DNA of 64,000 nucleotides from NCBI GenBank assembly GCA_020638975.1, contig JACKHN010000020.1, forward strand, positions 1 to 64,000, in the 5' to 3' direction. Position 1 is the stretch's first letter. Every line of letters begins with the position of its first letter. Source of the stretch: Planctomycetaceae bacterium (GTDB lineage Bacteria > Planctomycetota > Planctomycetia > Pirellulales > Pirellulaceae). The notes under the pieces are model-generated. The model worked only from the letters and a program-made list of their open reading frames with translations, was not told the DNA's origin and made no database searches. The position numbers were made by a program, and so were the translations under genes. Shown here in pieces: positions 7,054 to 40,154 of this stretch.

Positions 7054-8406
7054 TCACGAAACTGCGGGATCAGCGGAATCGTGGGCCGCGATGGCGGCTC
7101 GGGAAAGGCTCAATGCGATTGCTGCCAGCACGATGCACGCGACGCTGAGTACGACATAAATCAACCAAGGCAGTCGCTCCGTGAGCGGTAATGGCTCCGG
7201 TTCGAAGAGCGGATTCGCCGTTCGCATTCCCAACGCTGCACGCGTTGGTTCAGGTGTCAGTCGTTGCGGGAGATTTCTAGCAAAGTCGTAGGTTGGATCT
7301 TCTGCATCAGGATTCCCGAAGTACAGTCGGCACGACTCGGATTGTTGGGACGAAGCGATTACGACCTGACGGGCATCAGCGGCAAAGGTTACTTGTTGAA
7401 TTTGCAAAGGTGGGTTCCGGTTATCGGTCACGATCAATCGTAATCGGGCCGCTCGAGCTTCGGGGAACTCGCTGCGCAACGGCTTTGTGGGTTCGCCAGC
7501 GCGCTTCCGCCAAACACCTGTGGCAATCGTGCTGAAACCCGTACCCGAGCCTTCTGGACCGCCAGCTTCGATTTGGTAATTTCGCACGAACGCTTCATCG
7601 GCGATATGGACTTCGATACTTGATACCGGCGTCTGATCACCACCAAGCTCACACACCCAGCGCGAGCCGGGACCGCTGTCGGTGGGAATGGCTTCACGCT
7701 CGCCAACGCGGGCGTTCAAGGTCAAAGTCTCGCCCGGCACTTCCACGGTTCGCAAAACAGTCACTTCCTCGATCGTAACAGCCTGCTTGTCGACCAGTGG
7801 ATCGCGAAACAACTTGATGCGGAGATAACGATAGCGACTCAATGGGTATTCGATCGCTTGATCTCGGAGCACTTTGTCACCACGGCGAAAGTCGACCAAA
7901 GGTTGCTCGTGCAAGGGCCTCCACTGTTCACCATCGTCGCTGCCTTCGAGCGTGAAGAGTCGGCGATAGTTCTGGCCGGGCAGTTGTATCTCTAAGGCAT
8001 TATGCTCCAACTTGCCGTCACCAAGATCAAGTGTCAGCTCACTCGATTGATCGGGGCCTTCCGTACGGTTGAACTCGCGAGCCTCCAGCGGTTGTCGTTC
8101 TGATCGCTTGCTGCGAACTCGCAATGCATACGGCACTTCTTTGCCGCTGGCCGTGAAAACTCGGAGGTCGTGCAAATCGTATCGGGCCCCGTCGAATATC
8201 TCTGGTGTGAGGATCACATCCATCCACTCACTTGTAGCCTCGGCGGAGCGTTCAATCGCTGCGGTATGTTGCCAACGGATCGGCGACTCGCTGGTGGTGC
8301 TGGCAACTGGATTCTGTTGACTGAACGCGGACGTGCTCCAAAGCGACAAGCCGGCTACGCAAGTTGCCATCCAACGTATTCGTTTCGTGATTGGTTGTTC
8401 ATGCAT
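7054..8406 (-). CDS. Secreted protein with N-terminal signal and C-terminal TM anchor (DUF3999-like)
   Basis: Signal peptide MATCVAGLSLWSTSAFSQQ and C-terminal TM LIYVVLSVACIVLAAIALSL. It overlaps the upstream DUF2339-like gene by 8 nt, so translational coupling is likely. Pfam DUF3999 and DUF2339 proteins are typically neighbours, and the ~450 aa size fits. Confidence 0.5.
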   Translation of the reverse strand: MHEQPITKRIRWMATCVAGLSLWSTSAFSQQNPVASTTSESPIRWQHTAAIERSAEATSEWMDVILTPEIFDGARYDLHDLRVFTASGKEVPYALRVRSKRSERQPLEAREFNRTEGPDQSSELTLDLGDGKLEHNALEIQLPGQNYRRLFTLEGSDDGEQWRPLHEQPLVDFRRGDKVLRDQAIEYPLSRYRYLRIKLFRDPLVDKQAVTIEEVTVLRTVEVPGETLTLNARVGEREAIPTDSGPGSRWVCELGGDQTPVSSIEVHIADEAFVRNYQIEAGGPEGSGTGFSTIATGVWRKRAGEPTKPLRSEFPEARAARLRLIVTDNRNPPLQIQQVTFAADARQVVIASSQQSESCRLYFGNPDAEDPTYDFARNLPQRLTPEPTRAALGMRTANPLFEPEPLPLTERLPWLIYVVLSVACIVLAAIALSLSRAAIAAHDSADPAVS

Positions 8407-10282
8407 GGTTGTTCGCGGCCTCTTCTGTTTGTTCGGCGTTGGTTGCTGGCTTCAAGCGTTGATAGACTCGAGCCGCCACGCCCAGGAAAACGGCAAGTAT
8501 GAAGAAGGCGAGGATGCGATAGATTTCGCTTAACCCCGACATGTCCAGCAGAAGTACTTTTCCAATCGTTAATGCGAAGAAGGCAATGCCCGTCCAGCGG
8601 AGCGTTGCCCGACCGAGGCGAAATCCGACTGCCAGCAAGATCGAGGCGTAGACCGTCCAAAGAATTGAGACGGACATCATCCCAATACGTCGCCAGGAGG
8701 TCGGCTCGGCAGCCATGCGAGCAACTGCGAAAAAGAAGTTCGACAAATCAACGGTCAACACCAGCCACAGCAGCACGATCGCGCCCAGTCCGGTGGCAGC
8801 GACGAGGTAACGCGTGGTGGTATTTAGCCGATCTCGATAGACCCTTGAAGCAAAATAGGCTGTCGCGATACAAGCAACGACGCCGATCGACGGCAAGGCA
8901 ACTCGATTCACAATTGGAAGAAGCAACTCGTTCGGGTAAGACGGCAGATCAATGCAGATGACTCGTACGACGCTCGCTGCTGTGATCACTGCGGCCTGAA
9001 TGCCCAGCACCCGCGATTCGATTCGCAAGTGAAACCACCACATCGCCGCACCAGTTGCGGCCCAACCTATCGCGATCCATCGACTGTCTGCCTGAAGCGG
9101 TATTGCTAGTACAACGAAACCAACGGAAACCGCCAAAGCGGTGACCAGTTCCGGAATGACTCCAGGCCTGAAGGCCAAAAGCAACCGACCTGCCATGACG
9201 TACACCGCAGCCATTGTAACGGCCGCCGTTCCCATCCACTCGCGATAATCGTCAGCCATCAATACGTAAAATGCGCCGAACCAAAACGCGGCATTGAGCA
9301 GTGTTAGGACAATGTTCTCGCGGCGATTGCTGTCAGTCCGCTTCAAGTGGCCTGCGAAGTTCTGGATCAAGTAAAGCCCGAAGATGACGGCCTGAAATGA
9401 CAAGGCCCACGCCCACTTCTCCGGATGATAGTTTCCTTCATACCACGACCAGAACAGTCCGTGGGTACCCAAGAAAGCCACGCTGGAAATCAAGGGCCAT
9501 CTTCGTACGAGCGTCACCACGAGTACGCCAAGATTCAATGCGGCCAGATAAACGAACAGAGCGATGTAAAGATCGTGTTCGTTCGGCAACAAGAGCGGCG
9601 TCGCAAGACCGCCCAACACCGCCATCAGCGCTATCGCGCCAGAATCGTAGAGGATCGCGCACACCATCGACAACACGACGATTATCGCGAGGAAGAATCC
9701 TGCTTGCTCAGCCGGCAACAACGAATAGAAGCCGAACGAACTGTAGGCTGATAGATAGAGAACGACGACACCACAAGCGGCCAGCATCTGGGACGAGATC
9801 GCTGCCCCACGTCGATGATAACGATGACCGGCCAGCATCAAGCATGTTCCGGCGAGGACGCCTATAGCAACGCGTCCAACCGGACCGATCCAATTATTCT
9901 CATAGGCGTATTTCAAGAAGAAGGCGGCGGTGAAGATCGACAGGACGACGGCCACCCAGCCAAACGCCTTTTGTCCAATCAGCAACTCCCATTGAATCGC
10001 TGGTCGTGGTTCCTGCGAAATCGATTGCTGCACAGGCGGTTGTGCGGTTTGTGCCTCGATTACTTCTTCGGCTACCACAAAGTCATCGTCGACCGTCGGG
10101 CCTACTGCCGTCGGCAACTCGGTCGTTGCGAAACGTCGCTCCAACTCCTGAATTCGACTTTCCAAGCCCTTGATGCGACTTGTGCGTACCAATGCCACGA
10201 TTGACAGAATCAGCACCGCAACCGGCACGCATAACGCGACAGCGGCGATTAGCAGAATGAAGATTGTTTCCAAGGAACCCAT
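8399..10282 (-). CDS. Large polytopic membrane protein (DUF2339-like)
   Basis: N-terminal TM followed by a coiled-coil IKGLESRIQELERRF, then more than 12 hydrophobic helices. This architecture is typical of DUF2339. Confidence 0.65.
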   Translation of the reverse strand: MGSLETIFILLIAAVALCVPVAVLILSIVALVRTSRIKGLESRIQELERRFATTELPTAVGPTVDDDFVVAEEVIEAQTAQPPVQQSISQEPRPAIQWELLIGQKAFGWVAVVLSIFTAAFFLKYAYENNWIGPVGRVAIGVLAGTCLMLAGHRYHRRGAAISSQMLAACGVVVLYLSAYSSFGFYSLLPAEQAGFFLAIIVVLSMVCAILYDSGAIALMAVLGGLATPLLLPNEHDLYIALFVYLAALNLGVLVVTLVRRWPLISSVAFLGTHGLFWSWYEGNYHPEKWAWALSFQAVIFGLYLIQNFAGHLKRTDSNRRENIVLTLLNAAFWFGAFYVLMADDYREWMGTAAVTMAAVYVMAGRLLLAFRPGVIPELVTALAVSVGFVVLAIPLQADSRWIAIGWAATGAAMWWFHLRIESRVLGIQAAVITAASVVRVICIDLPSYPNELLLPIVNRVALPSIGVVACIATAYFASRVYRDRLNTTTRYLVAATGLGAIVLLWLVLTVDLSNFFFAVARMAAEPTSWRRIGMMSVSILWTVYASILLAVGFRLGRATLRWTGIAFFALTIGKVLLLDMSGLSEIYRILAFFILAVFLGVAARVYQRLKPATNAEQTEEAANNHA

Positions 10283-27698: not shown

Positions 27699-30041
27699 TT
27701 AAATCAACTGTTCGATGCTTTCTAACAGATTGCTTTGATCGAAACCGCTTTTTACCAGATAGACGCTGGCCCCAACGCGTATGCCTCGCGTCTTGTCTTC
27801 GTCCGACTCGCGCGCCGTGACCAGAATCACAGGCAGTTCGCCGAGCCTTTTCGATTTGCGAATCTTATCAGTCAGCGTAAATCCGTCCATACGTGGCATA
27901 TCAATGTCGCTCACAACAAGATCCACCTCCGTGTGACTAAGTAATTCCCATGCCTGGGCACCATCTGCCGCCGAGGTGACTTCGTAGCCAGCGGCTTCGA
28001 GGATGCTCTTCATGAGCGTCCGCGTCGTCACGGAATCGTCCACAGCCAACACCCGTTTCCGCTGTTGAGTTCTCGCTTGCGGTCTCGCAACGACGAGCGG
28101 ACGAGCCGTCTGAGTTCCTAATGCCGTCCCGACCACGTTCTGCACATTCAATACCAACGCCACACTGCCCGACGGCAACAAAGTCGCGCCCGATATATGG
28201 CGGGCATACCGAATGCGAGTCCCGAGGCTCTTGACGAGCACCTCCTGTTCGGCAAGTAAGTCGTCAACGACCAGTGCCACACGCTGGTCGCCGGCGCCAA
28301 TGACTACCGCGAGCATCTTCGAGCTATCTGAGTTTCCCTCATACCTGCCCATCTCCAGCACTTCGGAAAGTACCGTCACCGGCGTGGGCGTTCCGCCAAG
28401 AAGGAGGACATCACGTCCGCTTACTTTGGCGATACTGCCAGGATCAAAGCGAACCAATTGCTGAACCGATGACGTCGAGAGCGCGTAAGTCTGTTGTGCA
28501 GCCAGCACTAACAAGCAGCGAACCGTCGTTAGCGTTAGTGGAACATTGATAGTAAACTTCGTCCCGACACCCTCTTGAAATTCCACGTCCACCGAGCCGT
28601 GTAATGCCTGCACGCCGCTCGCAACAACATCCAAACCAACCCCCCGTCCCGATACGTCCGTAACTGTCGACGCGGTCGAAAATCCCGGCAGAAATACCAA
28701 TCGGGCTTGCTCGGACGGATCGTTTGGCACAGCGATTCCACGTTGTTGTGCGTGCTTGCAAATTCCTCTTAGATCGAATCCGCGACCATCATCTGCGACA
28801 GCGACTTCGATCTGCCCTCCTCGCAACTCTGCAGATACCGTCACGGACGCTTGTGACGGTTTGCCAGTCTTCGAGCGTTCCACAGACAACTCGATTCCAT
28901 GGTCAATGGCATTCCTCACAAGATGCAGGACAGGATCCTTCAGCCCCTCGAGGACGGAGCGATCGACTTCGACATCCTCTCCCTTGATCACAAGGCGAAC
29001 ATCCTTTCCCGTCACCTGAGCAAGATCGCGAACTGCGCGTTCGAGCCCACCGCATGCCTCGGCGAACGGCAGCATGCGGACGCGGTAAACTTCATCGTTC
29101 AACGCGTCGCAGGTATGCCGCAGCACGCGTGCGTCTGCTGCGACGTTCGCGGCGAGACGATCGGCGGCCTTTTCTATCTTTGCCAATTGGTCTCCGGTGC
29201 GTTCCAGAATCGCCACGGTTCGTCGCGGCAATTTACTCTTAATGGCAGCGGCAAGCCACGCATCGTCTGGCTCGGTCAGCAGTTTGTGTAAAGGCTTGGC
29301 CCATTCGTTCCAGTCGCCTTGCAAATCGGACAGCGACTCGCTCAATTCGCTCGATTCGATAGTCCGTTGGTCAATCCGCTGGCGAGCGACAAGCAACTCG
29401 CCATTTTGTGAAAGCAATGCGTCCAACTTTTCGGCAGCCACTCGAACCGAGGCACTACTTGCCGCAGATGGCGTGTGCACGGCTTCCACCGGTGAATCAA
29501 CTTCGGAAGCTGACGTCTGCGCCGGAGACTCGGTGGAAGGTGCACTCTCTTCGATTGCGTGTGGCGGGACGATGTCGACCGCTGACTGCGTCGCAACAGC
29601 CTTCTCGTCTAAGACGCCAACGATACCGGCGGAACCTTTGTTCTTCGCCGCATTTCGCAACTCTGGGATTAGGGTGTGTAATGAAGCGTCTTCGAACGGC
29701 TGGTCATCACGAAGCCGCATTCCAACTTCTTGGATTGCATCGGCTACTTTAAAGAACAACGAAAATAAATCGGGAGTGAGTTCGCGCCGGCCATCCCGCA
29801 CCTCGACCAAGATGTCCTCCATGATGTGACAAGCATCCTCGATGATTTCGATATTCACCGCCCGCGATGCGCCTTTGAGACTGTGTGCCGAACGGAACAA
29901 CACCTTCATCACGTCGGCACGCTGCTCGGTGGGTAATCCGCGTTCCAACGTAAGCAAATCGCGATTCATTGCTTCAACGTGTTCATGAAGCTCTTCCAGG
30001 TAAGTCGCCATCAAGCGTTTTGCGAGTTCTTGTCTATCCAT
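27699..30041 (-). CDS. cheA: Hybrid chemotaxis histidine kinase CheA with C-terminal CheY-like receiver
   Basis: HPt domain (HSLKGASRAVN), HATPase_c (NAIDHGIE...DDGRGFD...GRGVGLDVV), a CheW-like domain, and a C-terminal REC (VLAVDDSVTTR...VVSDIDMPRMDG). Confidence 0.9.
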   Translation of the reverse strand: MDRQELAKRLMATYLEELHEHVEAMNRDLLTLERGLPTEQRADVMKVLFRSAHSLKGASRAVNIEIIEDACHIMEDILVEVRDGRRELTPDLFSLFFKVADAIQEVGMRLRDDQPFEDASLHTLIPELRNAAKNKGSAGIVGVLDEKAVATQSAVDIVPPHAIEESAPSTESPAQTSASEVDSPVEAVHTPSAASSASVRVAAEKLDALLSQNGELLVARQRIDQRTIESSELSESLSDLQGDWNEWAKPLHKLLTEPDDAWLAAAIKSKLPRRTVAILERTGDQLAKIEKAADRLAANVAADARVLRHTCDALNDEVYRVRMLPFAEACGGLERAVRDLAQVTGKDVRLVIKGEDVEVDRSVLEGLKDPVLHLVRNAIDHGIELSVERSKTGKPSQASVTVSAELRGGQIEVAVADDGRGFDLRGICKHAQQRGIAVPNDPSEQARLVFLPGFSTASTVTDVSGRGVGLDVVASGVQALHGSVDVEFQEGVGTKFTINVPLTLTTVRCLLVLAAQQTYALSTSSVQQLVRFDPGSIAKVSGRDVLLLGGTPTPVTVLSEVLEMGRYEGNSDSSKMLAVVIGAGDQRVALVVDDLLAEQEVLVKSLGTRIRYARHISGATLLPSGSVALVLNVQNVVGTALGTQTARPLVVARPQARTQQRKRVLAVDDSVTTRTLMKSILEAAGYEVTSAADGAQAWELLSHTEVDLVVSDIDMPRMDGFTLTDKIRKSKRLGELPVILVTARESDEDKTRGIRVGASVYLVKSGFDQSNLLESIEQLI

Positions 30042-30510
30042 GAGGAATCACCTTTCGTACATCAATCAGACTGGCAAGAAGCTCGAATCGAGATGACCGC
30101 GCAACGACTTGCCTCACTCTGACCTTGACGTGTTCATGGTCATCGAACTGCTGTAGACGCCATGTGCAAATCAGCATGGACTGATAGACATGCATCGGTC
30201 GCAGATTGGACTCGACGGCGAAAGGGTAATCAGATTCGTCAACGCTGACAACAGTTTCGCTGAGACGATTTTCATTCCATACTTCGATGATGCGATCCAG
30301 CGAACGGTTAAGCAGTTCCGGTTTTGCATAGACATGTGTCGGTGAAATCCCATCCGGAAAGTTGACTGAGTCCAGCGGGATTGCTGCCAAAGGGTCGCTC
30401 AAAAATGAGAGGCCCCGAACAACGAGTGGAACATTAGCCGAGACGACGCCAAATACGACGACGACAACAAACGCTCGGAAGCCGGTGGCTAGTCGCCGCA
30501 TCGCACTCAA
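30034..30510 (-). CDS. Hypothetical small protein with N-terminal signal/TM, embedded in che operon
   Basis: MRRLATGFRAFVVVVVFGVVSA is a hydrophobic N-terminus. There are 4-8 nt overlaps with both the cheW stop and the cheA start, implying translational coupling. Confidence 0.45.
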   Translation of the reverse strand: MSAMRRLATGFRAFVVVVVFGVVSANVPLVVRGLSFLSDPLAAIPLDSVNFPDGISPTHVYAKPELLNRSLDRIIEVWNENRLSETVVSVDESDYPFAVESNLRPMHVYQSMLICTWRLQQFDDHEHVKVRVRQVVARSSRFELLASLIDVRKVIPHG

Positions 30511-31124
30511 TTCCTCTCGTCCATAAACAATCTTTCGTCGGATAACAGCATCTCGCCATCTAAGATCAACATGCCATCTGCCGTCACGCCACGTAGGTAA
30601 TCACGACTCGCACCATGCACGCAGCCTGGCACCTCGACAACTTCGTCGATACGCAAAGTGGTAACTTCATGAACTTCGTCGACCAACATGCCGAACTCCT
30701 GCCGCCCCTTGCCCAGGATGATGATCGGTGGCTGCGTTTCGGGCGCAGTGGTGATGTCGAAAAACGTTCGCAGGTCCAACACCGAGAGCACCGCCCCTCG
30801 CATGTTCGTAACACCCAACAGAAACTCCGGCCCTCCTGGCACGGGTGTAATGTCGCTCACTCGATAAACTTCGTGGATGAATTTCGTCTCAATCGCCAAA
30901 CGTTCCGTTGCCATCCGCACGATCATGACTTCAAGAATCTCGTCCGAGTTGGGAGCCGTATCGGGAACCTTTGCGAGTGTCTTCGCACGCTCGGCCATGA
31001 CGACTTCGGCCTGCGTCTCCGTCAGCGATTCACTTTGGCTAGACGCTTCCATCAGACGTAGGAAACGCTGCTTAATAGCCTCCCAATCGAATTGCCCCGA
31101 CTGCGGCTTGTCCGATGTTGTCAT
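30507..31124 (-). CDS. cheW: CheW-like coupling protein (with ~60-aa N-terminal extension)
   Basis: FLLGVTNMRGAVLSVLDLRTFF is the CheW core motif. It has a 4-nt overlap with cheR. Confidence 0.8.
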   Translation of the reverse strand: MTTSDKPQSGQFDWEAIKQRFLRLMEASSQSESLTETQAEVVMAERAKTLAKVPDTAPNSDEILEVMIVRMATERLAIETKFIHEVYRVSDITPVPGGPEFLLGVTNMRGAVLSVLDLRTFFDITTAPETQPPIIILGKGRQEFGMLVDEVHEVTTLRIDEVVEVPGCVHGASRDYLRGVTADGMLILDGEMLLSDERLFMDERN

Positions 31125-32590
31125 GATGTCGCCCCCAGTGCGGCATCAATCGCTCGCAAATGGTTCGTGGCCGCTCTCGCTAGTAGCCGCGACGTTTCGT
31201 GTTCGGACAAGGGAACTATTTCATCGGGAGCTCGAGCCGCTGCTAAATCCCGGGCATTTCGGAAAGCTCGCCTTGCCCCATCAAGCGTCCCACGTCGCTG
31301 CAAGATCGAACCGAGCAGAAAGTGCGCGAGGGCCAGCGAACGATCAAGAAACACGACTCGCTGCACCGCCTGCACCGCCTCGACATCCAAGTTCATCTCC
31401 ATCAGCAACACGGCGTGCAGATAATGCAGTTCCGCCGAAAGCGGATGACGGGTTGCGAACAACGCGCATTTTCGGATCGCTGCCTCGGTGCTTAAGTTTG
31501 CCAACGATTTCACATGGATAATGCACGCCGCCGGCTCATTGGGATGCGATTCCGAAAGCTCCACCGCCCGGGCATAATCACCTCGGGCAAGAGCCGCGTG
31601 AGCTTCGTCCTTGTCCCATCGAGTATCTCGATTGATTGCCGCCGTCGACTGAGAATCGCGATTTGCTTGCGATATATTTCCCGAGTTTGCTCCGTACAAA
31701 CCGTCGCGTGGTTCGTTTGTCTCCCATGCCGCCTCCGGAGCCACAACCGCTTCTGTCTTCGCAGCTGTGGGCTTGCGATAAAAGACTCCGAAGTCTGTGA
31801 CGGTCGTCTCGAAAGGAGCGAAATCTCCAACGGGAGGATCACCGGATGCTGTAATAAACCAACCACCGTCGGCAAGGCACTGAAAGAACCGTTGTGCAAC
31901 TTCACGGATCGTCGAGCGACTCAGATAGATCAAAACGTTTCGACAGAGAATCAAATCCATCGCTTCGGTGCTCGTCACATGCGACGGATAGACATCCATT
32001 GCCAGATTCAGGAACTCAAAGCGAACCATACGCCGAATTTTTTCATCGACGTAATAGATCCCTCTGTCGAATCTCAAGTACTCCTTCGCCTCGGCTTGTA
32101 ACTCTCCCCGCAACGACCAGTCGCGATAAGTGGCTTGGCGTGCTTTTGACAATGCTTCCGATGAAATGTCGGTGGCCAAGATCTCGCACTGACTTGCCAG
32201 TCCTTGCTTATGGCACAGCATCGCAAGCGAATAGGGTTCTTCTCCCGACGCGCACGCCGCACTCCAAATTCGCAACTTTTGCCAACCGCCCTTTCGTCGC
32301 AAGATTTCGGGAAGGATCTCGCGGCGAATCCCCTCGAACTGAGATGCCTCGCGAAAAAAGTAAGTCTCACCGACGGTTAACTCGACAATCAAGTTCTCTA
32401 ATGCCTCGACGTCATGCACCAGCAACTTGGCGTACGCCGACGACTCCGCTACACCGCTTCGCTTCATCGCGTTCGCAATTCCTATCTTGGTTGCTTCGCG
32501 TTGAGCCGCTCGAAAGGCGAGTCCAGTCCGCGCCCCTAAGATCGAAAGGATGGATTCGTAGGCTTCGTCCGTCCAGTTGATTTCCGTCAC
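31121..32590 (-). CDS. cheR: Chemotaxis protein methyltransferase CheR fused to C-terminal TPR repeats
   Basis: ETYFFRE, LRIWSAACASGEEPYSLAML and NVLIYL match CheR SAM-MTase motifs. The C-terminal ~200 aa are TPR-like helical repeats. Confidence 0.85.
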   Translation of the reverse strand: MTEINWTDEAYESILSILGARTGLAFRAAQREATKIGIANAMKRSGVAESSAYAKLLVHDVEALENLIVELTVGETYFFREASQFEGIRREILPEILRRKGGWQKLRIWSAACASGEEPYSLAMLCHKQGLASQCEILATDISSEALSKARQATYRDWSLRGELQAEAKEYLRFDRGIYYVDEKIRRMVRFEFLNLAMDVYPSHVTSTEAMDLILCRNVLIYLSRSTIREVAQRFFQCLADGGWFITASGDPPVGDFAPFETTVTDFGVFYRKPTAAKTEAVVAPEAAWETNEPRDGLYGANSGNISQANRDSQSTAAINRDTRWDKDEAHAALARGDYARAVELSESHPNEPAACIIHVKSLANLSTEAAIRKCALFATRHPLSAELHYLHAVLLMEMNLDVEAVQAVQRVVFLDRSLALAHFLLGSILQRRGTLDGARRAFRNARDLAAARAPDEIVPLSEHETSRLLARAATNHLRAIDAALGATS

Positions 32591-33051
32591 GTCGATGGTC
32601 CCTCCGTTTGGGACTCGACCAGAGCCGCAGCGCTAAGCGTACCTTCCATCGCCGCCAGTCTCTCGATATCGATTACATGCACGAGGCCGTCACTCGTTTT
32701 CGCCACGAAGTCAATCAGCCCAGTCTGCGGCAAAACCGTTGACGCGGCCTGCACATCGCATCCTGCTAACTGGACGAGATCGATCGCCACGTCAACGTGC
32801 AATGCGAGCGTCCGCTCGTCCGTAGCAACGACGATGAAATAGTCGGTGTGCCGAATCTTTCGAGAGTCGAGTGAAAACAACCGGCGCACATCAATAACCG
32901 GCAGAATCCGTCCTCGCAGATTCAACAGCCCCTCGACGATGTCGGGTGCTTGCGGGAGCGGCGACAATTTGACCGCGCGTACGACTTCCCGGACGTTGCG
33001 AAGCTGAACGCCGAATCGCTTATCTCCAACATCGAACAGCAGAGCTTCCAC
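32587..33051 (-). CDS. cheW: CheW coupling protein
   Basis: FGVQLRNVREVVRAVKLSPLPQAPDIVEGLLNLRGRILPVIDVRRLF is canonical CheW. Confidence 0.8.
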   Translation of the reverse strand: MEALLFDVGDKRFGVQLRNVREVVRAVKLSPLPQAPDIVEGLLNLRGRILPVIDVRRLFSLDSRKIRHTDYFIVVATDERTLALHVDVAIDLVQLAGCDVQAASTVLPQTGLIDFVAKTSDGLVHVIDIERLAAMEGTLSAAALVESQTEGPST

Positions 33052-33090
33052 TTAAACGCGCCCTCGAGAGGATCGGACGGGCGAACCAGT

Positions 33091-33170
33091 AGTGGTACAC
33101 TTTGTCGTAAGTCGACTTTGTCGTAAGTCGACTTTGTCGTAAGTCGACTTTGTCGTAAGTCGACTTTGTC
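33091..33170. repeat. Five tandem copies of a 16-bp unit (CTTTGTCGTAAGTCGA) followed by an 8-bp-stem hairpin, in the promoter region of the che operon
   Basis: Copies 1-4 are perfect head-to-tail and copy 5 ends ...tcgg. The hairpin gtcgggcactcctgcccgac follows at 33166-33185. The region lies 40-120 nt upstream of the first cheW start (33051). Confidence 0.8.
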
Positions 33171-33428
33171 GTAAGTCGGGCACTCCTGCCCGACAAAAGA
33201 CGGCCAAGAGTGGCCGTCCTACTTTCCGGAATTTCAAACTGTACCACTACCGGCGAACCGAAAAGACATGTCGCGGACCTATGGATCTATTCTAATGGAA
33301 GCGAATCGCACCTCCACACATTTAACGATCGAGACGGTTAAATCGAATATACGGATGTCCGATCCGCGAAACCCGCGAACGGGTTCGCGCGCCTAGGCTG
33401 TACCTCAGATTCAGGTCGACAACGGCAC

Positions 33429-33788
33429 TCAAGCGAATGCGTTCAAGGCCTCAGACTCTGTGTCGCAGATCTTGAAAAGAGTGCCTTCAAGATTAAGAAC
33501 CTTGAACGACATCCGCACATTCCGTTGAAGGTCGCACAGAATTAACTGGCCACCGTATTCATGGACGGCTTTGCGGACATCGACCAAGATGCCGATGGCA
33601 TTCGATCCCATGAACTCGACACTCTTGAGGCTCAGCACGAGTCGTTGCGGTGACGTCGTCGCAACGAGATCCGTCAACTCGTCACGGAGCTGCTCTTGGT
33701 AGTCCAGCTCCGATAGCTCCTTCGCCTTGACGTCAACGATCGTAATTTCGCCGGATTTGCGTACATCGAATCGTTGGTAATCGGTCAT
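33429..33788 (-). CDS. STAS-domain protein (anti-sigma-factor antagonist, SpoIIAA-like)
   Basis: ITIVDVKAKELSELD...LVLSLKSVEFMGSNAIGILVDV...GGQLILCDLQRNVRMSFKVLNLEGTLFKI matches the STAS fold. Start trimmed to MTDYQRF. Confidence 0.7.
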   Translation of the reverse strand: MTDYQRFDVRKSGEITIVDVKAKELSELDYQEQLRDELTDLVATTSPQRLVLSLKSVEFMGSNAIGILVDVRKAVHEYGGQLILCDLQRNVRMSFKVLNLEGTLFKICDTESEALNAFA

Positions 33789-34070
33789 GCAATTGCTCAC
33801 AGGTAGGAGTTCACCGAGTATTCCGCCGCCACGGAACATGCCAGTACGGATACTTAACTACCCCACCAGACTAACCATTGCATTACGCGGTGTCAAAAGG
33901 CCACGACGCGAGGGGCCATTGGTTTTCAAGCTTTGTTAACCCACACGACGATGGCTGGCGGAGAACAGCCGAAGCTGGATCGTGAGTGGAAATAACAAAG
34001 GCGGCAGCTGAATTCCGAGGAATCAGCTACCGCCTCAATGGGATTTCAAGTCGTCGGACGGGCCGAGCGA

Positions 34071-34665: not shown

Positions 34666-35229
34666 ATGCTAGCAAAAGAGATCAAGCCAGGTGCGGTCGT
34701 TGTGTACGACGGTTCGCCAATACTTATTGAGTCAATGAACGTCCAATCCCCCTCCGCCCGAGGTGCCGCAACTTTGTACAAGTTCCGAGGTCGGAACCTC
34801 GCGACGAAGCAGAAGACGGACATCACCTTGAAGGGTGGCGAGTCGCTGAACGAAGCCGACTTTCAACGCCGCCCGGTCAAGTTGATGTACAGCGATGCCA
34901 CTGACATGCATTTCCTTGACGATCAGGACTTCAACGAGTGGGTACTGCCACTTGAAGACGTCGGCGAAGCGATCAACTTCATTACCGAAGGGCTCGAGGG
35001 TATCCTGTGTTTGATCTACAACGACGAATGTATTGGTGTCCAGTTGCCCACCACGATCGAGTTGACGATCGCCGAGTGTGATCCGGGCGTACGCGGTAAC
35101 TCGGCGACCGGTCGGACGAAACCAGCCAAACTGGAGACGGGGCTGATCGTCCAAGTGCCGGAATTCATCAAACAGGGCGAGCGAATCAAGGTGGATTCTC
35201 GCACCAGCGCGTTCCTTTCTCGAGCCTAG
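34666..35229 (+). CDS. efp: Elongation factor P
   Basis: 187 aa with EF-P KOW-like and OB domains: KPGAVVVYDGSPILIESMNVQSPSARGAATLYKFRGRNLATKQKTDITLKGGESLNEADFQRRPVKLMYSD. Confidence 0.9.
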   Translation: MLAKEIKPGAVVVYDGSPILIESMNVQSPSARGAATLYKFRGRNLATKQKTDITLKGGESLNEADFQRRPVKLMYSDATDMHFLDDQDFNEWVLPLEDVGEAINFITEGLEGILCLIYNDECIGVQLPTTIELTIAECDPGVRGNSATGRTKPAKLETGLIVQVPEFIKQGERIKVDSRTSAFLSRA

Positions 35230-35310
35230 TTTTCCTACCCGCGAAACCTAGCCCACACCTCTGGGGTTTAAGCGGGTGTTACTTTGCCCTACGAACTCGC
35301 GGAAAATGCC

Positions 35311-37575
35311 ATGAAACGAATCGCCCTTGTCTTGTTCACCTGCTCGTTTGTCGGTTTTCTGCTTGGGGATGAACAATCTTCCACAACGCAAGTCGCGAAC
35401 ATCGCACCAACATTCTCCTTGGGCGACTTTCGTGGCAAGCAGTGGAGTTCGGACGATTTCAGCGCGCAACGAGTGCTCGTCGTCGCTTTCTTGGGGACGG
35501 AATGTCCGATCGTGCAGCTCTATTCTCAGCGGCTTCAAGAGATGTCCGACGAACTTTCCGAGCGAGGCGTTGCCTTTATCGGGATCAACCCGAATCAGCA
35601 GGATTCGCTATCCGAATTGGCGCATTTCGCGAAGACTCATGCCATTACCTTCCCGTTGTTGAAGGATCCTGGCAATCGCGTTGCGGATCAGTTTGGCGCA
35701 ACGCGAACACCCGAAGTGTTCGTGTATGATGAGGCAAGGCAGCTCCGTTATCACGGTCGCATCGACGATCAGTACACCTACGGGATTCAACGCCCCAAAG
35801 TGGAACACGAGTACTTGCGTGAGGCAATCGATGCGTTGCTGGCAGATAAACCCATCGCGATCGCGGACACGGAGATTATCGGCTGCCTGATCGGACGCGT
35901 TGCGGAGCCGGATCCGAATAGCGATGTCACTTACTCAAAGCACATCAGTCGGATTTTCCAACGTCGTTGTGTCGAGTGTCATCGCGAAGGCGAGATCGCT
36001 CCGTTCTCGCTCACGAGCTATGACGATGCAGCCGGCTGGGCCGAAATGATCGCAGAGGTCGTCGACCAGCAGCGGATGCCGCCCTGGCACGCCAATCCGA
36101 AGCATGGCGACTTTGCCAACGACGCACGTCTGACGGATGAGGAGAAGCAACAAATCAATGATTGGGTCGCGAGCGGTTCCCCTGAAGGAGACCGCTCAGA
36201 CTTGCCGCCACCTCGAACGTATGTAGAAGGTTGGCGAATCGGCACGCCCGATTTGATCGTCAAAATGTCGGAGAAGCCGTTTAAAGTTCCGGCTGAAGGT
36301 GAAGTTCGCTACCAGTACTTCACCGTCGATCCTGGCTTCACCGAAGACAAATGGGTCAAGGCCGCAGAATGTCGCCCGGGCAATCGCGCGGTTGTCCATC
36401 ACATCATCGTTGCCGCCGGATCGCCTGAGCAAGCTGGAAAGCGAGCCCACGGCAACCTTGAATCCGATTGGCTCGCCGCAACGGCACCAGGCGCACAACC
36501 CATGATGTTGCCGAACGGCTTGGCAAAACGGATTCCTGCCGGATCGCGTCTGGTCTTTCAGATGCACTACACGCCGAACGGAACAGCGCAGGAAGACCTT
36601 AGTAGCATCGGGCTGATCTTTGCTGATCCCAAAACGGTGAAACGAGAGGTCGTTACACAAAAGGCGGCCCAACCTCGCTTCCAGATTCCTCCTGGAGCTG
36701 ACAACCACGAGGTCACTGCGCAAACAACTTTCCATCAAGACACACTGATGCTGGCGATGTTCCCGCACATGCATCTGCGAGGGAAGTCATTCCGGTATAC
36801 AGCAACTTATCCCGATAAAAGCGAAGAAATTTTGCTGGATGTTCCACACTACGATTTCAATTGGCAGAACGCGTACGCATTCAAAGAGCCGAAACTCATG
36901 CCTGCCGGAACGAAGTTGACCTGCGTCGCACACTACGATAATTCAGCAGCGAATTTATCCAACCCGGATCCGACGGCGTCGGTTCGTTGGGGCGATCAAA
37001 CATGGGAAGAGATGATGATCGGCTACTTCGACATGGTCCTCGCCGATCAAGACCTCTCGAAGAATCCGCTCACTCGGCGAACGGACGATTTCCTAAAACA
37101 GTACGCCGCCGGGACAACCACTGTCCCTGCTCAAGTACAACAGTTCGCGTCTTCCGCCTTAGAATCCGATGAATCGCTACGTCGTCTCGGAGCCGAGTTG
37201 CTTAAGGTCGTACCGCAAGTTGATCGCGTCGACTGGATTGCTGTCGAAGGTCGCACGCTGCATGTACGCCGTGTCGCCCAATCCGGCGGCGCGGGCCAAG
37301 GTGCATCTGGGCTGAAGGTACCTGCGGCGAAGCTGCGATTGGCAGAGTATGCAGAAGGTAACACGACCGTCGTTCACGCGAAGACGAGCGAAGTCGACGC
37401 TCCTGACTTCAAGTTGCTTGGTCGCTTGTTCGCTTCGAGCATGCATGTGCCGGTAAAGGTCGAAGGTGTTCCCGCCGTGATCAGCTTCTGGAGCACCGAA
37501 CTGGATGCTTTTCCAGCGGAAGCTGTGGGGATTCTCGAAGGGTTGGCGAAGCAACTCAATACAAAGCCACGCTAG
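35311..37575 (+). CDS. Secreted multidomain redox protein: redoxin-like, Planctomycete cytochrome c (CxxCH), and copper type-II monooxygenase-like domains
   Basis: Signal peptide MKRIALVLFTCSFVGFLLG. Thioredoxin-fold block VLVVAFLGTECPIVQLY...TPEVFVYD. Heme motif RRCVECHREGEIAPFSL. His clusters VVHHIIV...QMHYT...FPHMHLRGKS resemble the CuH/CuM sites of PHM/DBH-type monooxygenases. Confidence 0.7.
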   Translation: MKRIALVLFTCSFVGFLLGDEQSSTTQVANIAPTFSLGDFRGKQWSSDDFSAQRVLVVAFLGTECPIVQLYSQRLQEMSDELSERGVAFIGINPNQQDSLSELAHFAKTHAITFPLLKDPGNRVADQFGATRTPEVFVYDEARQLRYHGRIDDQYTYGIQRPKVEHEYLREAIDALLADKPIAIADTEIIGCLIGRVAEPDPNSDVTYSKHISRIFQRRCVECHREGEIAPFSLTSYDDAAGWAEMIAEVVDQQRMPPWHANPKHGDFANDARLTDEEKQQINDWVASGSPEGDRSDLPPPRTYVEGWRIGTPDLIVKMSEKPFKVPAEGEVRYQYFTVDPGFTEDKWVKAAECRPGNRAVVHHIIVAAGSPEQAGKRAHGNLESDWLAATAPGAQPMMLPNGLAKRIPAGSRLVFQMHYTPNGTAQEDLSSIGLIFADPKTVKREVVTQKAAQPRFQIPPGADNHEVTAQTTFHQDTLMLAMFPHMHLRGKSFRYTATYPDKSEEILLDVPHYDFNWQNAYAFKEPKLMPAGTKLTCVAHYDNSAANLSNPDPTASVRWGDQTWEEMMIGYFDMVLADQDLSKNPLTRRTDDFLKQYAAGTTTVPAQVQQFASSALESDESLRRLGAELLKVVPQVDRVDWIAVEGRTLHVRRVAQSGGAGQGASGLKVPAAKLRLAEYAEGNTTVVHAKTSEVDAPDFKLLGRLFASSMHVPVKVEGVPAVISFWSTELDAFPAEAVGILEGLAKQLNTKPR

Positions 37576-40154
37576 TCACGAACGCGCAAGGCCAGTAGCC
37601 CGACGCCGGCGAACACCGTAATGTATACGGCCAATGCAACGCAGCCCCAACCCGGCGTCCAGCTGTCCGACAACGTCAGGTAATCGGCATCACGCAACCG
37701 CTCTTGGACCGAGCTTTCTAGTGTCGTAAGCGATCCTTGAAATGCCCAGTACGCCGGAATGAAAACCTGTGAAAACTCACGCGTGTAGTTCAACAGTGGC
37801 GCTATCAACCCGGCGAGGATGATCTGCGGAATCAGCATCATCGGCACAACGGTCGCGGCCAGGTCCTCCGTCGTCGCCAAAGCCGAAATTGCCAGCCCCA
37901 TCGCAACGCCAGTCGTCGCGGCCAGCGACAGCAGCATCCATTGGCCGATCGCATCACCGCCTAAGTGGGTAAAACGGTTGACGAGCCAATAGAAAAGTGT
38001 GGCTTGCAAAATGCTAATAGTTGCCAGCAAGACGAACTTCGATCCGTAGTAGCTCAGCACTCGCAACCCGACGTCACGTTCCCTGCCGTAGATCGTGGCT
38101 TCTTTCACGATCTCTTTTGCGGAATTGTTACAGCCGAACCAAATGCAGGAAATGCAAAGCAAGAATAGAAGCTTTGACGACAGATCGGTTCGCTTGGCGA
38201 GTTCGGCTTCAACGCGGAGCTCTTTTCGCTGTTTATCGCGTTGTCGAATATACTCTTCGTCCGCCTCCAAGAACGCTCGATCCTCGTCCGACATGTTGCT
38301 GAGCGAACCACCGTATTGAAGCTCATACAGTTGCTCTTCTCGTTGCGTGACTTCCGTGTCAACATTCAGCTTCGAGATGTCGCCAAACAACCAAACCAAC
38401 AACCCGGCGATCACGAGGCATTGTCCGAAGATCATCGCCAATGCCCGCTTATCCGCCCATTGAATTGCGAGGTAGCGTCGCAGCAATACATGAAACTGCC
38501 GCCACATCGTCATCAATTGCAGCGGGCGCCGCCGGCTCGTCACTCTTGCTACAGCGTCATTCGCCTCAGGTAATCGACGTTCGACGTATTCCTGATAGAC
38601 GGGGCTCTTCTTAAACCGTTCTTTCCACTCGCTAGGTGTGCGATGCTTGAGGACTTGATAGACGTCGCCAAGTCGCTCAATTCCAAAGTATTTCAGCGCG
38701 GCGGAGGGCGGACCGAAAAACGCGAGCACTCCGCCTTCGGCCAGGATCGCCACGAGGTGACAGTTGTCAGGCACATAACTCAGACTGTGCGTGACACAGA
38801 CCAGCGTTTTCCCTTCATCCGCCATGCGACGGAACATCTGCATCATTTCCGAATCGGTTTGTTCGTCGAGCCCTGACGTGACCTCATCCAGAAAGATCAG
38901 ACTCGGGTTGCTGATCGCTTCATTCGCCCAACTCGCCCGCTTGATCTGGCCACCGCTCAGTTGTCGGATCTGTGTGAACTGCCGCTGCACCAAGCTGACT
39001 GTATCTAGCGTCGCGTCGATTCTTGCCTCGATGTCTTGTCTCGACATATCGGCAGGCAGACGCATCTTGGCCGTATACCAAAGCGCGGTCTTGAGCGGCA
39101 AGACATCGTGCAACACGTCGCGTTGCGGGACGACCGCGAGATTCTGCTTCAGAGCGTCAAAGTGGGAGTAAAGGTTCTCGCCGTTCAGCAGCACGCTGCC
39201 TTCGTTGGCCGGAACGCGAGCACTTAGCGCCGAGAGTAGCGTTGTCTTGCCCGAACCACTTGGTCCCAGTATGCACACGAATTCGCGAGGCCGCACGACT
39301 AACGAAACGTCGTCGAGAATCACTTTCTGCTGGCCGCGATTCCGGCGATCAGGCACTTGTCGCACTAAATTCCTGGCCACAAGTTCGACGTTATTTTCAC
39401 GGCACAAAGGATACAGTGCGTGGCCGCGATAGATCCATGTGTGTGGGCCGATCTGAACTCGCGTCCCGTCCGTAATCACCGTTGGCTTTGCGATCGCTTC
39501 GCCGTTCACGAACGTATGATTGGCACTCCTGAGATCCGTGATGGTTGCGTAGGGGCCGGTCCGTTCGATGGCAGCGTGCTGGCGTGAAACACGCACGTCG
39601 GGCAGGCAAATGTCAGCGCGATCAGCATCGCGACCGATGACAGCACGTGTTTCTGGCAGCGCAATCGCACCGGGAATTTCGAGCGGGACGATTGACTGCT
39701 GCATCTGCAGAATCTGATCGAACGGCATACGCATCGTTTCACTAGTGTGAATCGTCTGCTTGGTCTCCGCCTCGCCGCCGAGCAACGACGGCGTCTCGAG
39801 CATTTGATTGATCAGCCAAAGATTGGCAGAGTAGGAGCTTGTCGTCTTAGTGTCTTCGTGTTCGACAAAGACCAGCACGCGATCGCCGACTTGGACGATA
39901 GCCAAATGATTCAGCAGCGACTTTCCGTCGACCAGCTTCTGGTTCAAGCTCAGCGAAATGCCGACTTTGCCTGGTGACAAGAACCACCGACCGTGCTCCT
40001 GTTCAATGCGGCATAAGGCATCATTTGGTCGGTCGCCATCCAGCGAAACGCCCGCCATTGGGTCAGCAATTACGCAAACTGCCGAACGTTCGTTAAAGAG
40101 ATGAGAACGCTCCGTCGCGATGTCATAAAGATAGGGATAGCTGTGGCCGTTCAC
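37572..40154 (-). CDS. FHA-FHA-ABC transporter (ATPase + ABC-2 permease fusion; Rv1747-like)
   Basis: Two N-terminal FHA domains (one is VIGRDADRADICLPDVRVSRQHAAIER...TDLRSANHTFVNGEAI). Walker A GPSGSGKTTLLSAL, signature LSGGQIKRASWA, Walker B LIFLDEVTSGLD, and six C-terminal TM helices. Confidence 0.85.
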   Translation of the reverse strand: MNGHSYPYLYDIATERSHLFNERSAVCVIADPMAGVSLDGDRPNDALCRIEQEHGRWFLSPGKVGISLSLNQKLVDGKSLLNHLAIVQVGDRVLVFVEHEDTKTTSSYSANLWLINQMLETPSLLGGEAETKQTIHTSETMRMPFDQILQMQQSIVPLEIPGAIALPETRAVIGRDADRADICLPDVRVSRQHAAIERTGPYATITDLRSANHTFVNGEAIAKPTVITDGTRVQIGPHTWIYRGHALYPLCRENNVELVARNLVRQVPDRRNRGQQKVILDDVSLVVRPREFVCILGPSGSGKTTLLSALSARVPANEGSVLLNGENLYSHFDALKQNLAVVPQRDVLHDVLPLKTALWYTAKMRLPADMSRQDIEARIDATLDTVSLVQRQFTQIRQLSGGQIKRASWANEAISNPSLIFLDEVTSGLDEQTDSEMMQMFRRMADEGKTLVCVTHSLSYVPDNCHLVAILAEGGVLAFFGPPSAALKYFGIERLGDVYQVLKHRTPSEWKERFKKSPVYQEYVERRLPEANDAVARVTSRRRPLQLMTMWRQFHVLLRRYLAIQWADKRALAMIFGQCLVIAGLLVWLFGDISKLNVDTEVTQREEQLYELQYGGSLSNMSDEDRAFLEADEEYIRQRDKQRKELRVEAELAKRTDLSSKLLFLLCISCIWFGCNNSAKEIVKEATIYGRERDVGLRVLSYYGSKFVLLATISILQATLFYWLVNRFTHLGGDAIGQWMLLSLAATTGVAMGLAISALATTEDLAATVVPMMLIPQIILAGLIAPLLNYTREFSQVFIPAYWAFQGSLTTLESSVQERLRDADYLTLSDSWTPGWGCVALAVYITVFAGVGLLALRVRD

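Follow-up and report, generated by a model that had tools for sequence, protein, structure and literature searches.

PHM, DBH and TBM are known from textbooks as enzymes of eukaryotes, and in animals the PHM/DBH type of enzyme produces adrenaline and amidated peptide hormones. The ligand set of the known members is tuned for substrate-triggered O2 activation, as in PHM, and how CuH receives its electrons and hands them over to CuM remains a matter of debate. One open reading frame in a 64,000-nucleotide stretch of DNA from a Planctomycetaceae bacterium (contig JACKHN010000020.1, positions 1 to 64,000; the window) raises the question of whether a bacterial protein can hold such a copper site together with an electron supply of its own. 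As read from its sequence, the product joins four predicted domains in one protein, namely a peroxiredoxin-like domain, a c-type cytochrome, a PHM/DBH-like copper monooxygenase core and a GAF domain. We consider it probable that this is an exported multidomain redox enzyme, in which a PHM/DBH-type non-coupled binuclear copper core takes its electrons from the fused mono-haem cytochrome c and not from ascorbate.

The gene is a complete coding sequence of 754 amino acids plus a stop codon (35311..37575, + strand), delimited by the list of open reading frames, the N-termini of homologues and full-length homologues with 54-84% identity. The frame ends at 37575 on the + strand, with the stop codon at 37573-37575 by direct translation, and could begin at a TTG at 35284 or at an ATG at 35311. 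Homologues support the ATG at 35311, to which a Met is aligned in 96% of 112 sequences; the TTG at 35284 is in frame and could serve as an alternative start, but has no support. A scan for promoters and terminators gave no signal above the shuffled expectation. The N-terminal MKRIALVLFTCSFVGFLLG resembles a signal peptide, with MKR followed by the hydrophobic IALVLFTCSFVGFLLG (35311..35376, + strand), and the protein is apparently exported. In the predicted model, this N-terminal segment forms a single helix, after which residues 15-26 make up a linker of low pLDDT. A lipoprotein reading of LFTC11 was rejected, because C11 varies among the 112 homologues and a lipobox is thus unlikely. All Cys of the protein lie at positions 11, 65, 192, 220, 223, 354 and 538. 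Among the 112 homologues (54-84% identity), the invariant residues include C65, C192, C220, C223, H224, M256, H363, H364, H419, H486, M487, H488, M568 and M569. The motifs TECPIV, CVECH, HH...H and HMH...M, on which the initial annotation of this gene was built, were all found again by direct translation. The wider family counts 10,739 clusters at 50% identity, and its named members all belong to Planctomycetota.

The copper monooxygenase region that the initial annotation had proposed, without database searches, held up in the fold analysis. Residues ~296-585 (36196..37065, + strand) form a PHM/DBH-like two-jelly-roll core of the kind described by PF01082 and PF03712 (clan CL0612), with a CuH-type site in the N-subdomain and a CuM-type site in the C-subdomain, and the top double-jelly-roll matches in the fold search are only PHM and DBH. 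A hidden Markov comparison by hhalign of a diverse family profile (109 diverse family sequences) with rat PHM, whose sequence was validated against 5wm0_A, gave 91.7% probability and an E-value of 9.7e-8 over 265 columns; with a narrow family profile (Neff 1.9) the probability was just 23%. The family profile of residues 296-585 found no match at E <= 10 among PDB sequences, so that the homology to PHM comes from the fold search and hhalign. In the Pfam scan, the window protein had no match to Cu2_monooxygen, the model of the N-domain, and it scored 16.8-19.0 bits for Cu2_monoox_C, below the gathering cutoff of 23. The latter model was matched by all 17 of the 17 family members tested, and two relatives passed the cutoff (P0192 with 27.0 bits and P0024 with 24.3 bits).

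The His clusters of this core had been likened to the CuH and CuM sites, and hhalign places all six putative ligands on those of PHM. H363-H364 (36397..36402, + strand) are the equivalents of H107/H108 and H419 (36565..36567, + strand) is the equivalent of H172, which together would form the predicted CuH site; the invariant Q417, just before H419, aligns with Q170 of PHM. The predicted CuM site would consist of H486 and H488, which lie in H486-M487-H488 (36766..36774, + strand) within the FPHMHLRGK motif and correspond to H242/H244, and of M568 (37012..37014, + strand), which lies in the WGDQTWEEMMIGY motif and corresponds to M314. The assignments rest on the alignment and on conservation, which is essentially complete across the family. 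All six ligands (HHH/HH/M) are kept in 156 of 157 representatives of the clusters at 50% identity. The CuH ligands are invariant in sets of 46 and 112 homologues and present in at least 161 of 163 representatives, and among the representatives that cover the CuM positions, H486 and H488 are each found in 166/166 and M568 in 160/160. R490, W518 and Q519 around CuM are near-invariant in the family representatives. A metal-free jelly-roll, either PNGase F-like or carbohydrate-binding, was rejected on account of the invariant ligands and of the PHM/DBH matches. The initial annotation had named two outcomes that would refute it, a lack of the monooxygenase fold and His ligands that vary among orthologs; both were checked, and it passed on both counts.

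The window protein differs from the animal enzymes in several respects. PHM, the catalytic core of PAM (PDB 1phm, 1sdw, 5wm0), is just 14-18% identical to it, and is a eukaryotic, ascorbate-dependent enzyme without a haem domain, whereas the window protein is bacterial and carries Prx-like, c-type cytochrome and GAF domains on the same chain as its core. DBH takes ascorbate as its reductant and contains a DOMON domain as well as a C-terminal domain for dimerisation. No DOMON domain was matched in the window protein in the Pfam scan, and its accessory domains (Prx-like, cytochrome c, GAF) differ from those of DBH, tyramine beta-monooxygenase and MOXD (PDB 4zel). The substrate pocket differs as well. 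The carboxylate anchor R240 of PHM is replaced by F484, at a position that varies among F, M, T, L and S across the family, which makes a peptidyl-glycine substrate unlikely. N316 of PHM corresponds to I570 and is not conserved, and Y318 to Y572 (Y, F or W in the family), the sole similar residue among these three substrate anchors.

Conserved sites of the PHM type would be just as compatible with oxidase or reductase chemistry as with hydroxylation. In this rather unlikely alternative, the copper domain would be an oxidase or reductase that is fed by the cytochrome c and reduces O2, H2O2, superoxide or a nitrogen oxide in the periplasm, and together with the Prx-like domain it would serve against oxidative stress or as a sink for electrons. 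The loss of the R240 and N316 anchors suits such a role. The retention of the full PHM/DBH ligand set, including the Met of CuM and the Q170 equivalent, argues against it, and the near-invariant residues around CuM suggest a defined substrate pocket. Monooxygenase chemistry at these sites stays the preferred reading, and its electron source is sought in the neighbouring domain.

Residues ~205-295 (35923..36195, + strand) make up a mono-haem c-type cytochrome domain, as judged by a CxxCH motif, M256, weak Pfam matches and a helical model. The motif, CVECH (C220-V-E-C223-H224; 35968..35982, + strand), is read by direct translation, is invariant in the homologues and is the sole CxxCH of the protein; it probably attaches the haem covalently. 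M256 lies 32 residues past H224 in an invariant R-M256-P-P-W motif and is a candidate axial Met of the haem, and a CxxCH...MP pattern was found in 134 of 169 representatives. The initial annotation had called this domain a Planctomycete cytochrome c. Its CVECH is indeed present and invariant, but PSCyt1, the Pfam family of that name, gave no match at E <= 1 in the Pfam scan, and the matches obtained instead were weak, all below their gathering cutoffs: 26.2 bits for Haem_bd (cutoff 27), 20.0 for Cytochrome_CBB3 (27) and 14.5 for Cytochrom_C (21.3). Paralogues score up to 38 bits for Cytochrome_CBB3. In the predicted model, which was built without haem, the domain is helical and has low pLDDT around the empty haem site.

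The position of the cytochrome is fixed relative to the copper core. Among the 137 representatives with enough upstream sequence, 134 have the CxxCH upstream of the copper domain at a median distance of 78 aa (range 77-108); in the remaining 3, no more than 61-68 residues precede the domain. Therefore, the family is defined by the pair of cytochrome c and PHM-like core, an obligatory fusion. A conserved wiring of haem c to copper would suit any electron-consuming copper site, and so fits oxidase or reductase chemistry as it fits a monooxygenase. The redox architecture had been described as unusual, and this is true in comparison with characterised enzymes; within Planctomycetota it is very common.

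Upstream of the cytochrome, residues ~27-200 (35389..35910, + strand) form a thioredoxin-fold redoxin domain of the PRX_like1 type. It has the peroxiredoxin fold, with an AhpC-TSA match, and resembles PRX_like1 (cd02969) from end to end, including a C-terminal extension with a conserved Gly-Cys. GTEC65P stands in place of CxxC (TECPIV at 35497-35514, by direct translation), and C65 (codon 35503..35505, + strand) is the sole Cys remaining at the redox-active-site position, aligned with the second Cys of CNHC in 2cvb. C192 (codon 35884..35886, + strand), in the GC-x-IGR motif of the C-terminal extension, is invariant and matches the C-terminal Cys of 2ywi, which has been treated as a putative resolving Cys (PMC3091736). 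The block had been described as holding a single Cys, which is right for the CxxC position; with C192 as a second invariant Cys, this does not apply strictly to the whole domain. Neither C65-P66 nor C192 varies among the redoxin-bearing representatives of the family, and R132, which may correspond to the catalytic Arg of Prx, is conserved in 68 of 88. The relatives in cd02969 are SMc02350 (3u5r), 2cvb and 2ywo from T. thermophilus and 2ywi from G. kaustophilus, which are stand-alone, uncharacterised proteins of ~190 aa, whereas in the window protein the domain serves as N-terminal module in a haem/copper protein. Where cyanobacterial PRX_like1 proteins have the motif AACTPDF (PMC3514251), the window protein has ATRTPEV.

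Because AhpC-TSA and Redoxin are the only above-threshold Pfam matches, the protein might be read as a peroxiredoxin or thiol-disulfide oxidoreductase, whose N-terminal domain is catalytic and whose haem and PHM-like regions are electron-accepting or binding accessories. The public annotations of the family ('peroxiredoxin', 'redoxin', 'redoxin domain-containing protein', 'thioredoxin family protein' and 'cytochrome c') largely agree with this, as does the invariant Cys pair. We regard it as very unlikely. The Prx signature PxxxT/SxxC is absent, for V-V-A-F-L-G-T-E-C65 lacks the Pro at -7 and has its Thr at -2, not at -3. Position 62 is G, S, A or D and never Cys in 84 representatives, so the CxxC of the TlpA/ResA/DsbE type is missing too. 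The NCBIfam scores stay far below their cutoffs, with 49.7 against 140 for thiol peroxidase, 17.9 against 260 for PrxQ and 40.7 against 170 for ResA, and the closest structures (3u5r, 2cvb, 2ywi) are themselves the uncharacterised ones. Among 167 representatives (R, redoxin; C, cytochrome c; P, PHM-like), 83 have the architecture RCP and 41 have CP, with 9 more split, which means that about a quarter are without the redoxin but keep the cytochrome c and PHM-like pair. The redoxin domain is therefore not the core of the family.

A role in copper handling or metalloprotein maturation is slightly less probable still. In such a factor, a Sco/TlpA-like domain and copper-binding jelly-rolls would take hold of copper in the periplasm, either to sequester it or to deliver it, and the haem would act as a redox sensor. 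The CxxxC and His motif of Sco is absent from the window protein, and the resemblance of the redoxin domain to Sco is no stronger than to any thioredoxin fold. To our knowledge, copper chaperones normally do not carry a complete catalytic CuH/CuM set with a fixed haem partner, which this family keeps across thousands of lineages, and the multiple paralogues and tandem duplications of the module are atypical of chaperones. The cytochrome-fed copper enzyme remains the reading that we follow.

The genomic setting was examined at 84 loci, and no partner gene is conserved across them. The gene efp lies upstream in 5/84, which reflects lineage synteny. DUF1501 (9/84), ABC ATPases (8/84), PSCyt2/PSD1 (6/84) and a PQQ-like propeller (6/84) occur too seldom as neighbours to be taken as partners, and are too widespread in planctomycete genomes at large. 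At one locus (L003), a PTPS gene overlaps the stop codon, a single occurrence. In the window itself, the sole tblastn match to a possible paralogue (8246-8010, E 0.026) sits in a DUF3999 ORF and was judged to be due to chance. None of the loci examined showed a conserved neighbouring gene able to supply a separate reductase, which is consistent with a self-contained electron-input domain. Nor is there a conserved neighbour that would supply a substrate or use a product, and this accords with oxidase or reductase chemistry, as does the frequent fusion to a Prx-like domain with an invariant Cys pair, which suggests peroxide chemistry. On the other hand, many paralogues per genome, tandem duplications of the whole module and fusions to EF-hand, TPR, GDSL, CBM48, DUF1080, PQQ propeller and BlaR1 look like substrate diversification and not like one housekeeping role in detoxification. 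Accessory domains were counted among 32, with EF-hand in 8 and TPR, GDSL and CBM48 in 2 each; as these fusions are heterogeneous, no substrate is assigned.

On the preferred reading, a C-H hydroxylating enzyme, the fused cytochrome (C220-x-x-C223-H224, M256) would be the electron source, its haem probably standing in for vitamin C as donor. A periplasmic carrier or the respiratory chain would reduce haem c, which would pass single electrons to CuH, and CuH would deliver them to CuM. CuM would then bind O2 and hydroxylate a C-H bond of an extracytoplasmic substrate. While the analysis shows the domain architecture, the folds, the register and conservation of the ligands and the fusion, we infer that the protein is exported, carries haem and binds copper, that electrons flow in this direction, and that O2 is activated and a substrate hydroxylated. 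The 'self-sufficient periplasmic oxygenase' of the initial annotation would be an apt name if these steps hold. The redoxin domain with C65 and C192 may be an accessory redox module, for which the most plausible, if speculative, role is the removal of peroxide from uncoupled turnover or thiol/disulfide exchange. Haem donors are known to be fused to copper enzymes in cytochrome c-fused NirK and cytochrome c-fused NosZ, and the cytochrome domain of cellobiose dehydrogenase feeds LPMOs. These systems share the design by which a built-in or dedicated haem domain gives single electrons to an extracytoplasmic catalytic copper, but only as an analogy, because their copper folds (cupredoxin, or the immunoglobulin-like fold of LPMO) are unrelated to the PHM double jelly-roll.

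The fourth domain was missing from the initial annotation. Residues ~590-754 (37078..37572, + strand) have a separate GAF fold, with helices flanking a central antiparallel beta-sheet, and R590, F594, P635, Q636, D638, R639, D699, S710, H712, P714, W727, S728 and F734 are invariant. The domain is confined to the sub-branch of the family that holds this gene, and its predicted location outside the cytoplasm is not usual for a GAF domain. There is no Cys in residues 590-754, so a Cys-based fRMsr mechanism (4mmn, 3ksf, 3rfb) is impossible and this function was rejected. In contrast to phytochrome and sensor GAF domains, it has neither the bilin-binding Cys nor a cyclic-nucleotide signature. It may be a sub-branch-specific module for ligand binding or regulation.

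Planctomycetota are known as degraders of complex polymers. A literature search found no paper on bacterial PHM/DBH-like proteins, on this family or on this fusion, and in a recent fold survey (PMC8812541) PHM is described as the arm of its clan that belongs to eukaryotes. The family may represent an unrecognised and very large bacterial branch of PHM/DBH enzymes, with more than 10,000 sequence clusters in which every copper ligand is kept. A bolder proposal, to which we hold only tentatively, is that its members are ascorbate-independent, cytochrome-fed and self-sufficient extracytoplasmic C-H hydroxylases that have diversified onto environmental substrates such as glycans, peptides and amines. 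If true, a fused haem c would stand in place of diffusible ascorbate, the Prx-like Cys pair would handle peroxide made by or used in the reaction, and the paralogues and accessory domains (CBM48, SGNH/GDSL, DUF1080, PQQ propeller, EF-hand, GAF) would reflect diversification of substrates. The family would offer a naturally wired system in which to study electron entry into a PHM/DBH-class copper site and new bacterial candidates for expression and structural work, and the evolutionary relation of the bacterial and eukaryotic branches would become testable. Thousands of database entries named 'peroxiredoxin', 'redoxin' or 'cytochrome c' miss the probable catalytic domain. For the organisms themselves, it would point to unexplored O2-dependent chemistry in the planctomycete periplasm, an oxidative toolkit functionally comparable to LPMOs with their cytochrome donor.

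The ORF list places the target gene at 35284/35311–37575 on the forward strand. Translation is taken to start at the ATG at 35311, since 96% of the 112 homologues aligned there have their N-terminal Met at this position. Direct translation from 35311 recovers every motif listed in the initial annotation, which described a secreted fusion of a redoxin, a Planctomycete cytochrome c and a PHM/DBH-like copper monooxygenase: TECPIV with C65, a single CxxCH (C220-V-E-C-H224), H363-H364, H419, H486-M-H488 and M568. The N-terminus, MKRIALVLFTCSFVGFLLG, resembles a signal peptide, and attachment of c-type haem needs an extracytoplasmic location, so the 754-aa protein is probably exported.

The copper core spans residues ~296–585. 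The full-length AF2 model has a mean pLDDT of 81.4 and a pTM of 0.67, and Foldseek against the PDB retrieved peptidylglycine alpha-hydroxylating monooxygenase (PHM) entries (E 3e-12 to 1e-10, ~300 columns) and human dopamine beta-hydroxylase (DBH; E 2e-11). Evidence for this assignment at the sequence level is weak but consistent. Pfam Cu2_monoox_C gives 16.8–19 bits on the target, under its cutoff of 23; all 17 family members tested match it (best E 4e-7), with the relatives P0192 and P0024 scoring above the cutoff, and a family profile retrieved no PDB chain by hmmsearch. Rat PHM 36–356, whose sequence was validated against chain 5wm0_A, served as the residue-level reference. In hhalign, a narrow target-family profile aligned to it with E 8.8e-4 and a diverse 109-sequence profile with 91.7% probability (E 9.7e-8, 265 columns, both subdomains), in the same register.

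In this alignment, H363/H364 and H419 correspond to H107/H108 and H172, the CuH ligands of PHM, while H486/H488 and M568 correspond to H242/H244 and M314, its CuM ligands. Q417 matches Q170, a conserved Gln beside a CuH ligand, and Y572 matches the substrate contact Y318. The carboxylate anchor R240 and the substrate contact N316 are not conserved, being F484 and I570 in the target; loss of R240 makes a peptidylglycine substrate unlikely. The six putative Cu ligands are invariant across 112 close homologues and occur together in 156/157 representatives of 50%-identity clusters, where R490, W518 and Q519 are near-invariant too. With the PHM/DBH fold retrieved and the His/Met ligands conserved, the initial structural interpretation withstands both a missing-fold and a missing-ligand objection, and is supported by fold, ligand alignment and conservation. 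A copper-handling or maturation factor, another role that could be imagined for these putative copper sites, is considered highly improbable. Separately, C354 (36370–36372) and C538 (36922–36924) form a Cys pair 99% conserved in the close subfamily; outside it C354 is mostly V/I/A and C538 is kept in 88/169 representatives. The pair could be a subfamily-specific disulfide joining the two jelly-roll subdomains.

Residues ~205–295 form a helical, predicted mono-haem cytochrome c domain, in which CxxCH and R-M256-P-P-W are invariant among homologues. Pfam Haem_bd falls slightly short (26.2 against a cutoff of 27), Cytochrome_CBB3 is also sub-cutoff, and the Pfam family ‘Planctomycete cytochrome C’ has zero matches in the target, so that label is unsupported. 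When the copper domain alone was used as phmmer query against 1.84 billion cluster representatives, 10,739 clusters were found at E <= 1e-3, of which the weakest may include other PHM-clan proteins, 6,346 at <= 1e-10 and 1,733 at <= 1e-30. The architecture, earlier called unusual, is thus abundant rather than rare. The best 150 were inspected. In 134 of the 137 with enough upstream sequence, CxxCH is found N-terminal to the copper domain, at a median distance of 78 residues (range 77–108); the remaining three have only 61–68 upstream residues, too short for CxxCH. Redoxin, cytochrome c and PHM-like domains are combined in 83 representatives, and 41 (plus 9 with a split domain hit) have cytochrome c and PHM-like domains only. 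These counts and the CxxCH placement among the inspected representatives identify cytochrome c plus PHM-like as the invariant unit, and the redoxin domain as a frequent accessory.

The target is probably an exported, ascorbate-independent, cytochrome-wired PHM/DBH-type monooxygenase. Reduced haem c would hand single electrons to CuH, which would relay them to CuM; O2 would be activated at CuM, where an extracytoplasmic substrate would be hydroxylated. The same haem–copper pairing could belong to a copper oxidase or reductase that takes electrons from the cytochrome c and acts on ROS or O2, which we regard as rather unlikely. The folds, the ligand alignment, the conservation and the constant cytochrome c–PHM-like fusion are direct results; export, haem attachment, copper binding, the path of the electrons and the chemistry are inferred.

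The thioredoxin-fold redoxin domain (residues ~27–200; Pfam AhpC-TSA E 6e-20, Redoxin E 3e-13) belongs to the group named PRX_like1 in CDD (PMC3514251). Where CxxC would be expected it has G62-T-E-C65; residue 62 is Cys in 0/84 representatives, while C65 is kept in 83/84 and P66 in 82/84. The single Cys initially described therefore holds for this position, but a second one, C192, is invariant (90/90 representatives) inside a GC-x-IGR motif. The C-terminal Cys of 2ywi is of the kind that serves as resolving Cys in peroxiredoxins (PMC3091736) and, in our reading of the alignment, is the counterpart of C192. A genuine peroxiredoxin or thiol oxidoreductase that uses the other domains as accessories would fit such a pair and is nonetheless very doubtful: the redoxin-less forms contradict it, as do missing signatures, since PxxxTxxC is absent from the domain and the target scores far under the cutoffs of the NCBIfam peroxiredoxin and ResA models. 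Under the monooxygenase reading the Prx-like C65/C192 pair is accessory; peroxide scavenging or thiol/disulfide exchange is a speculative role for it.

The initial annotation missed a C-terminal GAF-fold domain (residues ~590–754), which is present in 9 representatives of any form and confined to the sub-branch of the target gene. Pfam GAF_2 matches 19/21 members (best E 2e-8), and a separate AF2 model has a pLDDT of 92. Direct translation shows no Cys in residues 590–754 and so rules out a mechanism of the fRMsr type; the domain is proposed to be an added module for ligand binding or regulation.

The whole three-domain module is tandem-duplicated in some ~1,250-aa proteins, and further fusions include BlaR1/M56, CBM48, DUF1080, GDSL/SGNH, PQQ propeller, EF-hands and TPR repeats, accessory domains too heterogeneous for the substrate to be named. 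In five members, P0133 (1087 aa), P0156 (853 aa), P0149/P0172 (~1060–1110 aa) and P0162 (1181 aa), the core module is fused either to a BlaR1/M56 membrane sensor-protease together with CBM48, or to DUF1080 (3-keto-disaccharide hydrolase), or to a GDSL/SGNH hydrolase, or to a PQQ-type beta-propeller; a glycan- or ester-related substrate is possible in some branches.

At least 589 loci in GTDB species genomes match two strict motifs. The taxonomic range was taken from named records among the best matches: the best 80 are nearly all titled Planctomycetota or the lineages Pirellulales, Planctomycetales and Gemmatales, with the cultured Anatilimnocola sp. NA78 and Maioricimonas sp. JC845 among them, and a genome often carries several paralogues. 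In a Pirellulales MAG with a 6.75 Mb contig (locus L004, 1–15750), a 1249-aa [redoxin–cyt c–PHM-like]x2 protein is followed by two members (679 and 620 aa); this array lies directly downstream of an 8233-aa giant ORF with no Pfam match and upstream of a PSCyt2/PSD1 protein. Public names are ‘redoxin domain-containing protein’, ‘peroxiredoxin’, ‘thioredoxin family protein’, ‘cytochrome c’, ‘mono/diheme cytochrome c family protein’ and ‘hypothetical’.

When all ORFs from 84 loci were clustered, no conserved gene partner was found; the top recurrences were DUF1501 (9/84), ABC ATPase (8/84), PSCyt2/PSD1 and PQQ-like propeller (6/84 each) and efp (5/84), and tandem paralogues occurred in 17/84. A promoter/terminator scan gave nothing exceeding shuffled expectation. 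The gene acts as a self-standing unit, in keeping with a protein that brings its own electron-input domain. It is preceded by efp (34666–35229, +). An FHA-ABC transporter gene at 37572–40154 (−), whose 860-aa product carries FHA, ABC ATPase and ABC-2 permease domains on a single polypeptide, converges on it, and this arrangement is also found in the close relative L001. Upstream lies a chemotaxis-like cluster (27699–33839, −), made up of a CheA-CheW-receiver hybrid, two CheW genes and a CheR whose C-terminus is much extended; the gene of a STAS-domain protein comes next, and both are syntenic in L001. At another locus, L003, a 6-pyruvoyl-tetrahydropterin synthase (PTPS/QueD-like) gene (8313–8804) overlaps the stop codon of a family member by 4 bases, which suggests co-transcription at that one locus.

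Elsewhere in the window, 49424–52138 (−) is a 904-aa ORF fusing a Ser/Thr protein kinase (Pkinase E 1e-51) to an Hsp70/DnaK-like ATPase (HSP70 E 5e-117). The 1124-aa ORF at 58489–61863 (+) combines AMP-binding (fatty-acyl-AMP ligase-like), PP-binding carrier and class I/II aminotransferase (alpha-oxoamine synthase-like) domains and could encode a one-protein acyl-activating and condensing enzyme. Adjoining ORFs at 7054–10282 (−) encode a protein with DUF3999 and a membrane protein with DUF2339; a faint likeness of DUF3999 to target residues 300–370 (tblastn E 0.026) was judged chance.

PMC8812541 treats PHM as the eukaryotic branch within the PNGase F/PHM clan. The copper domain of the target shares the fold and ligands of PHM/DBH, is structurally and evolutionarily related to them and would work likewise, but its sequence stays under the curated Pfam thresholds and it lacks the substrate anchors of PHM. 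Rather than an orthologue of PHM or DBH, it is best regarded as a bacterial branch of the superfamily that has diverged. Full-text searches of the literature turned up neither a paper on bacterial members nor one on a cytochrome c fusion. The family is a large and well-supported haem-wired branch, apparently unstudied so far, of the classic copper monooxygenase family, with a presumed monooxygenase activity.
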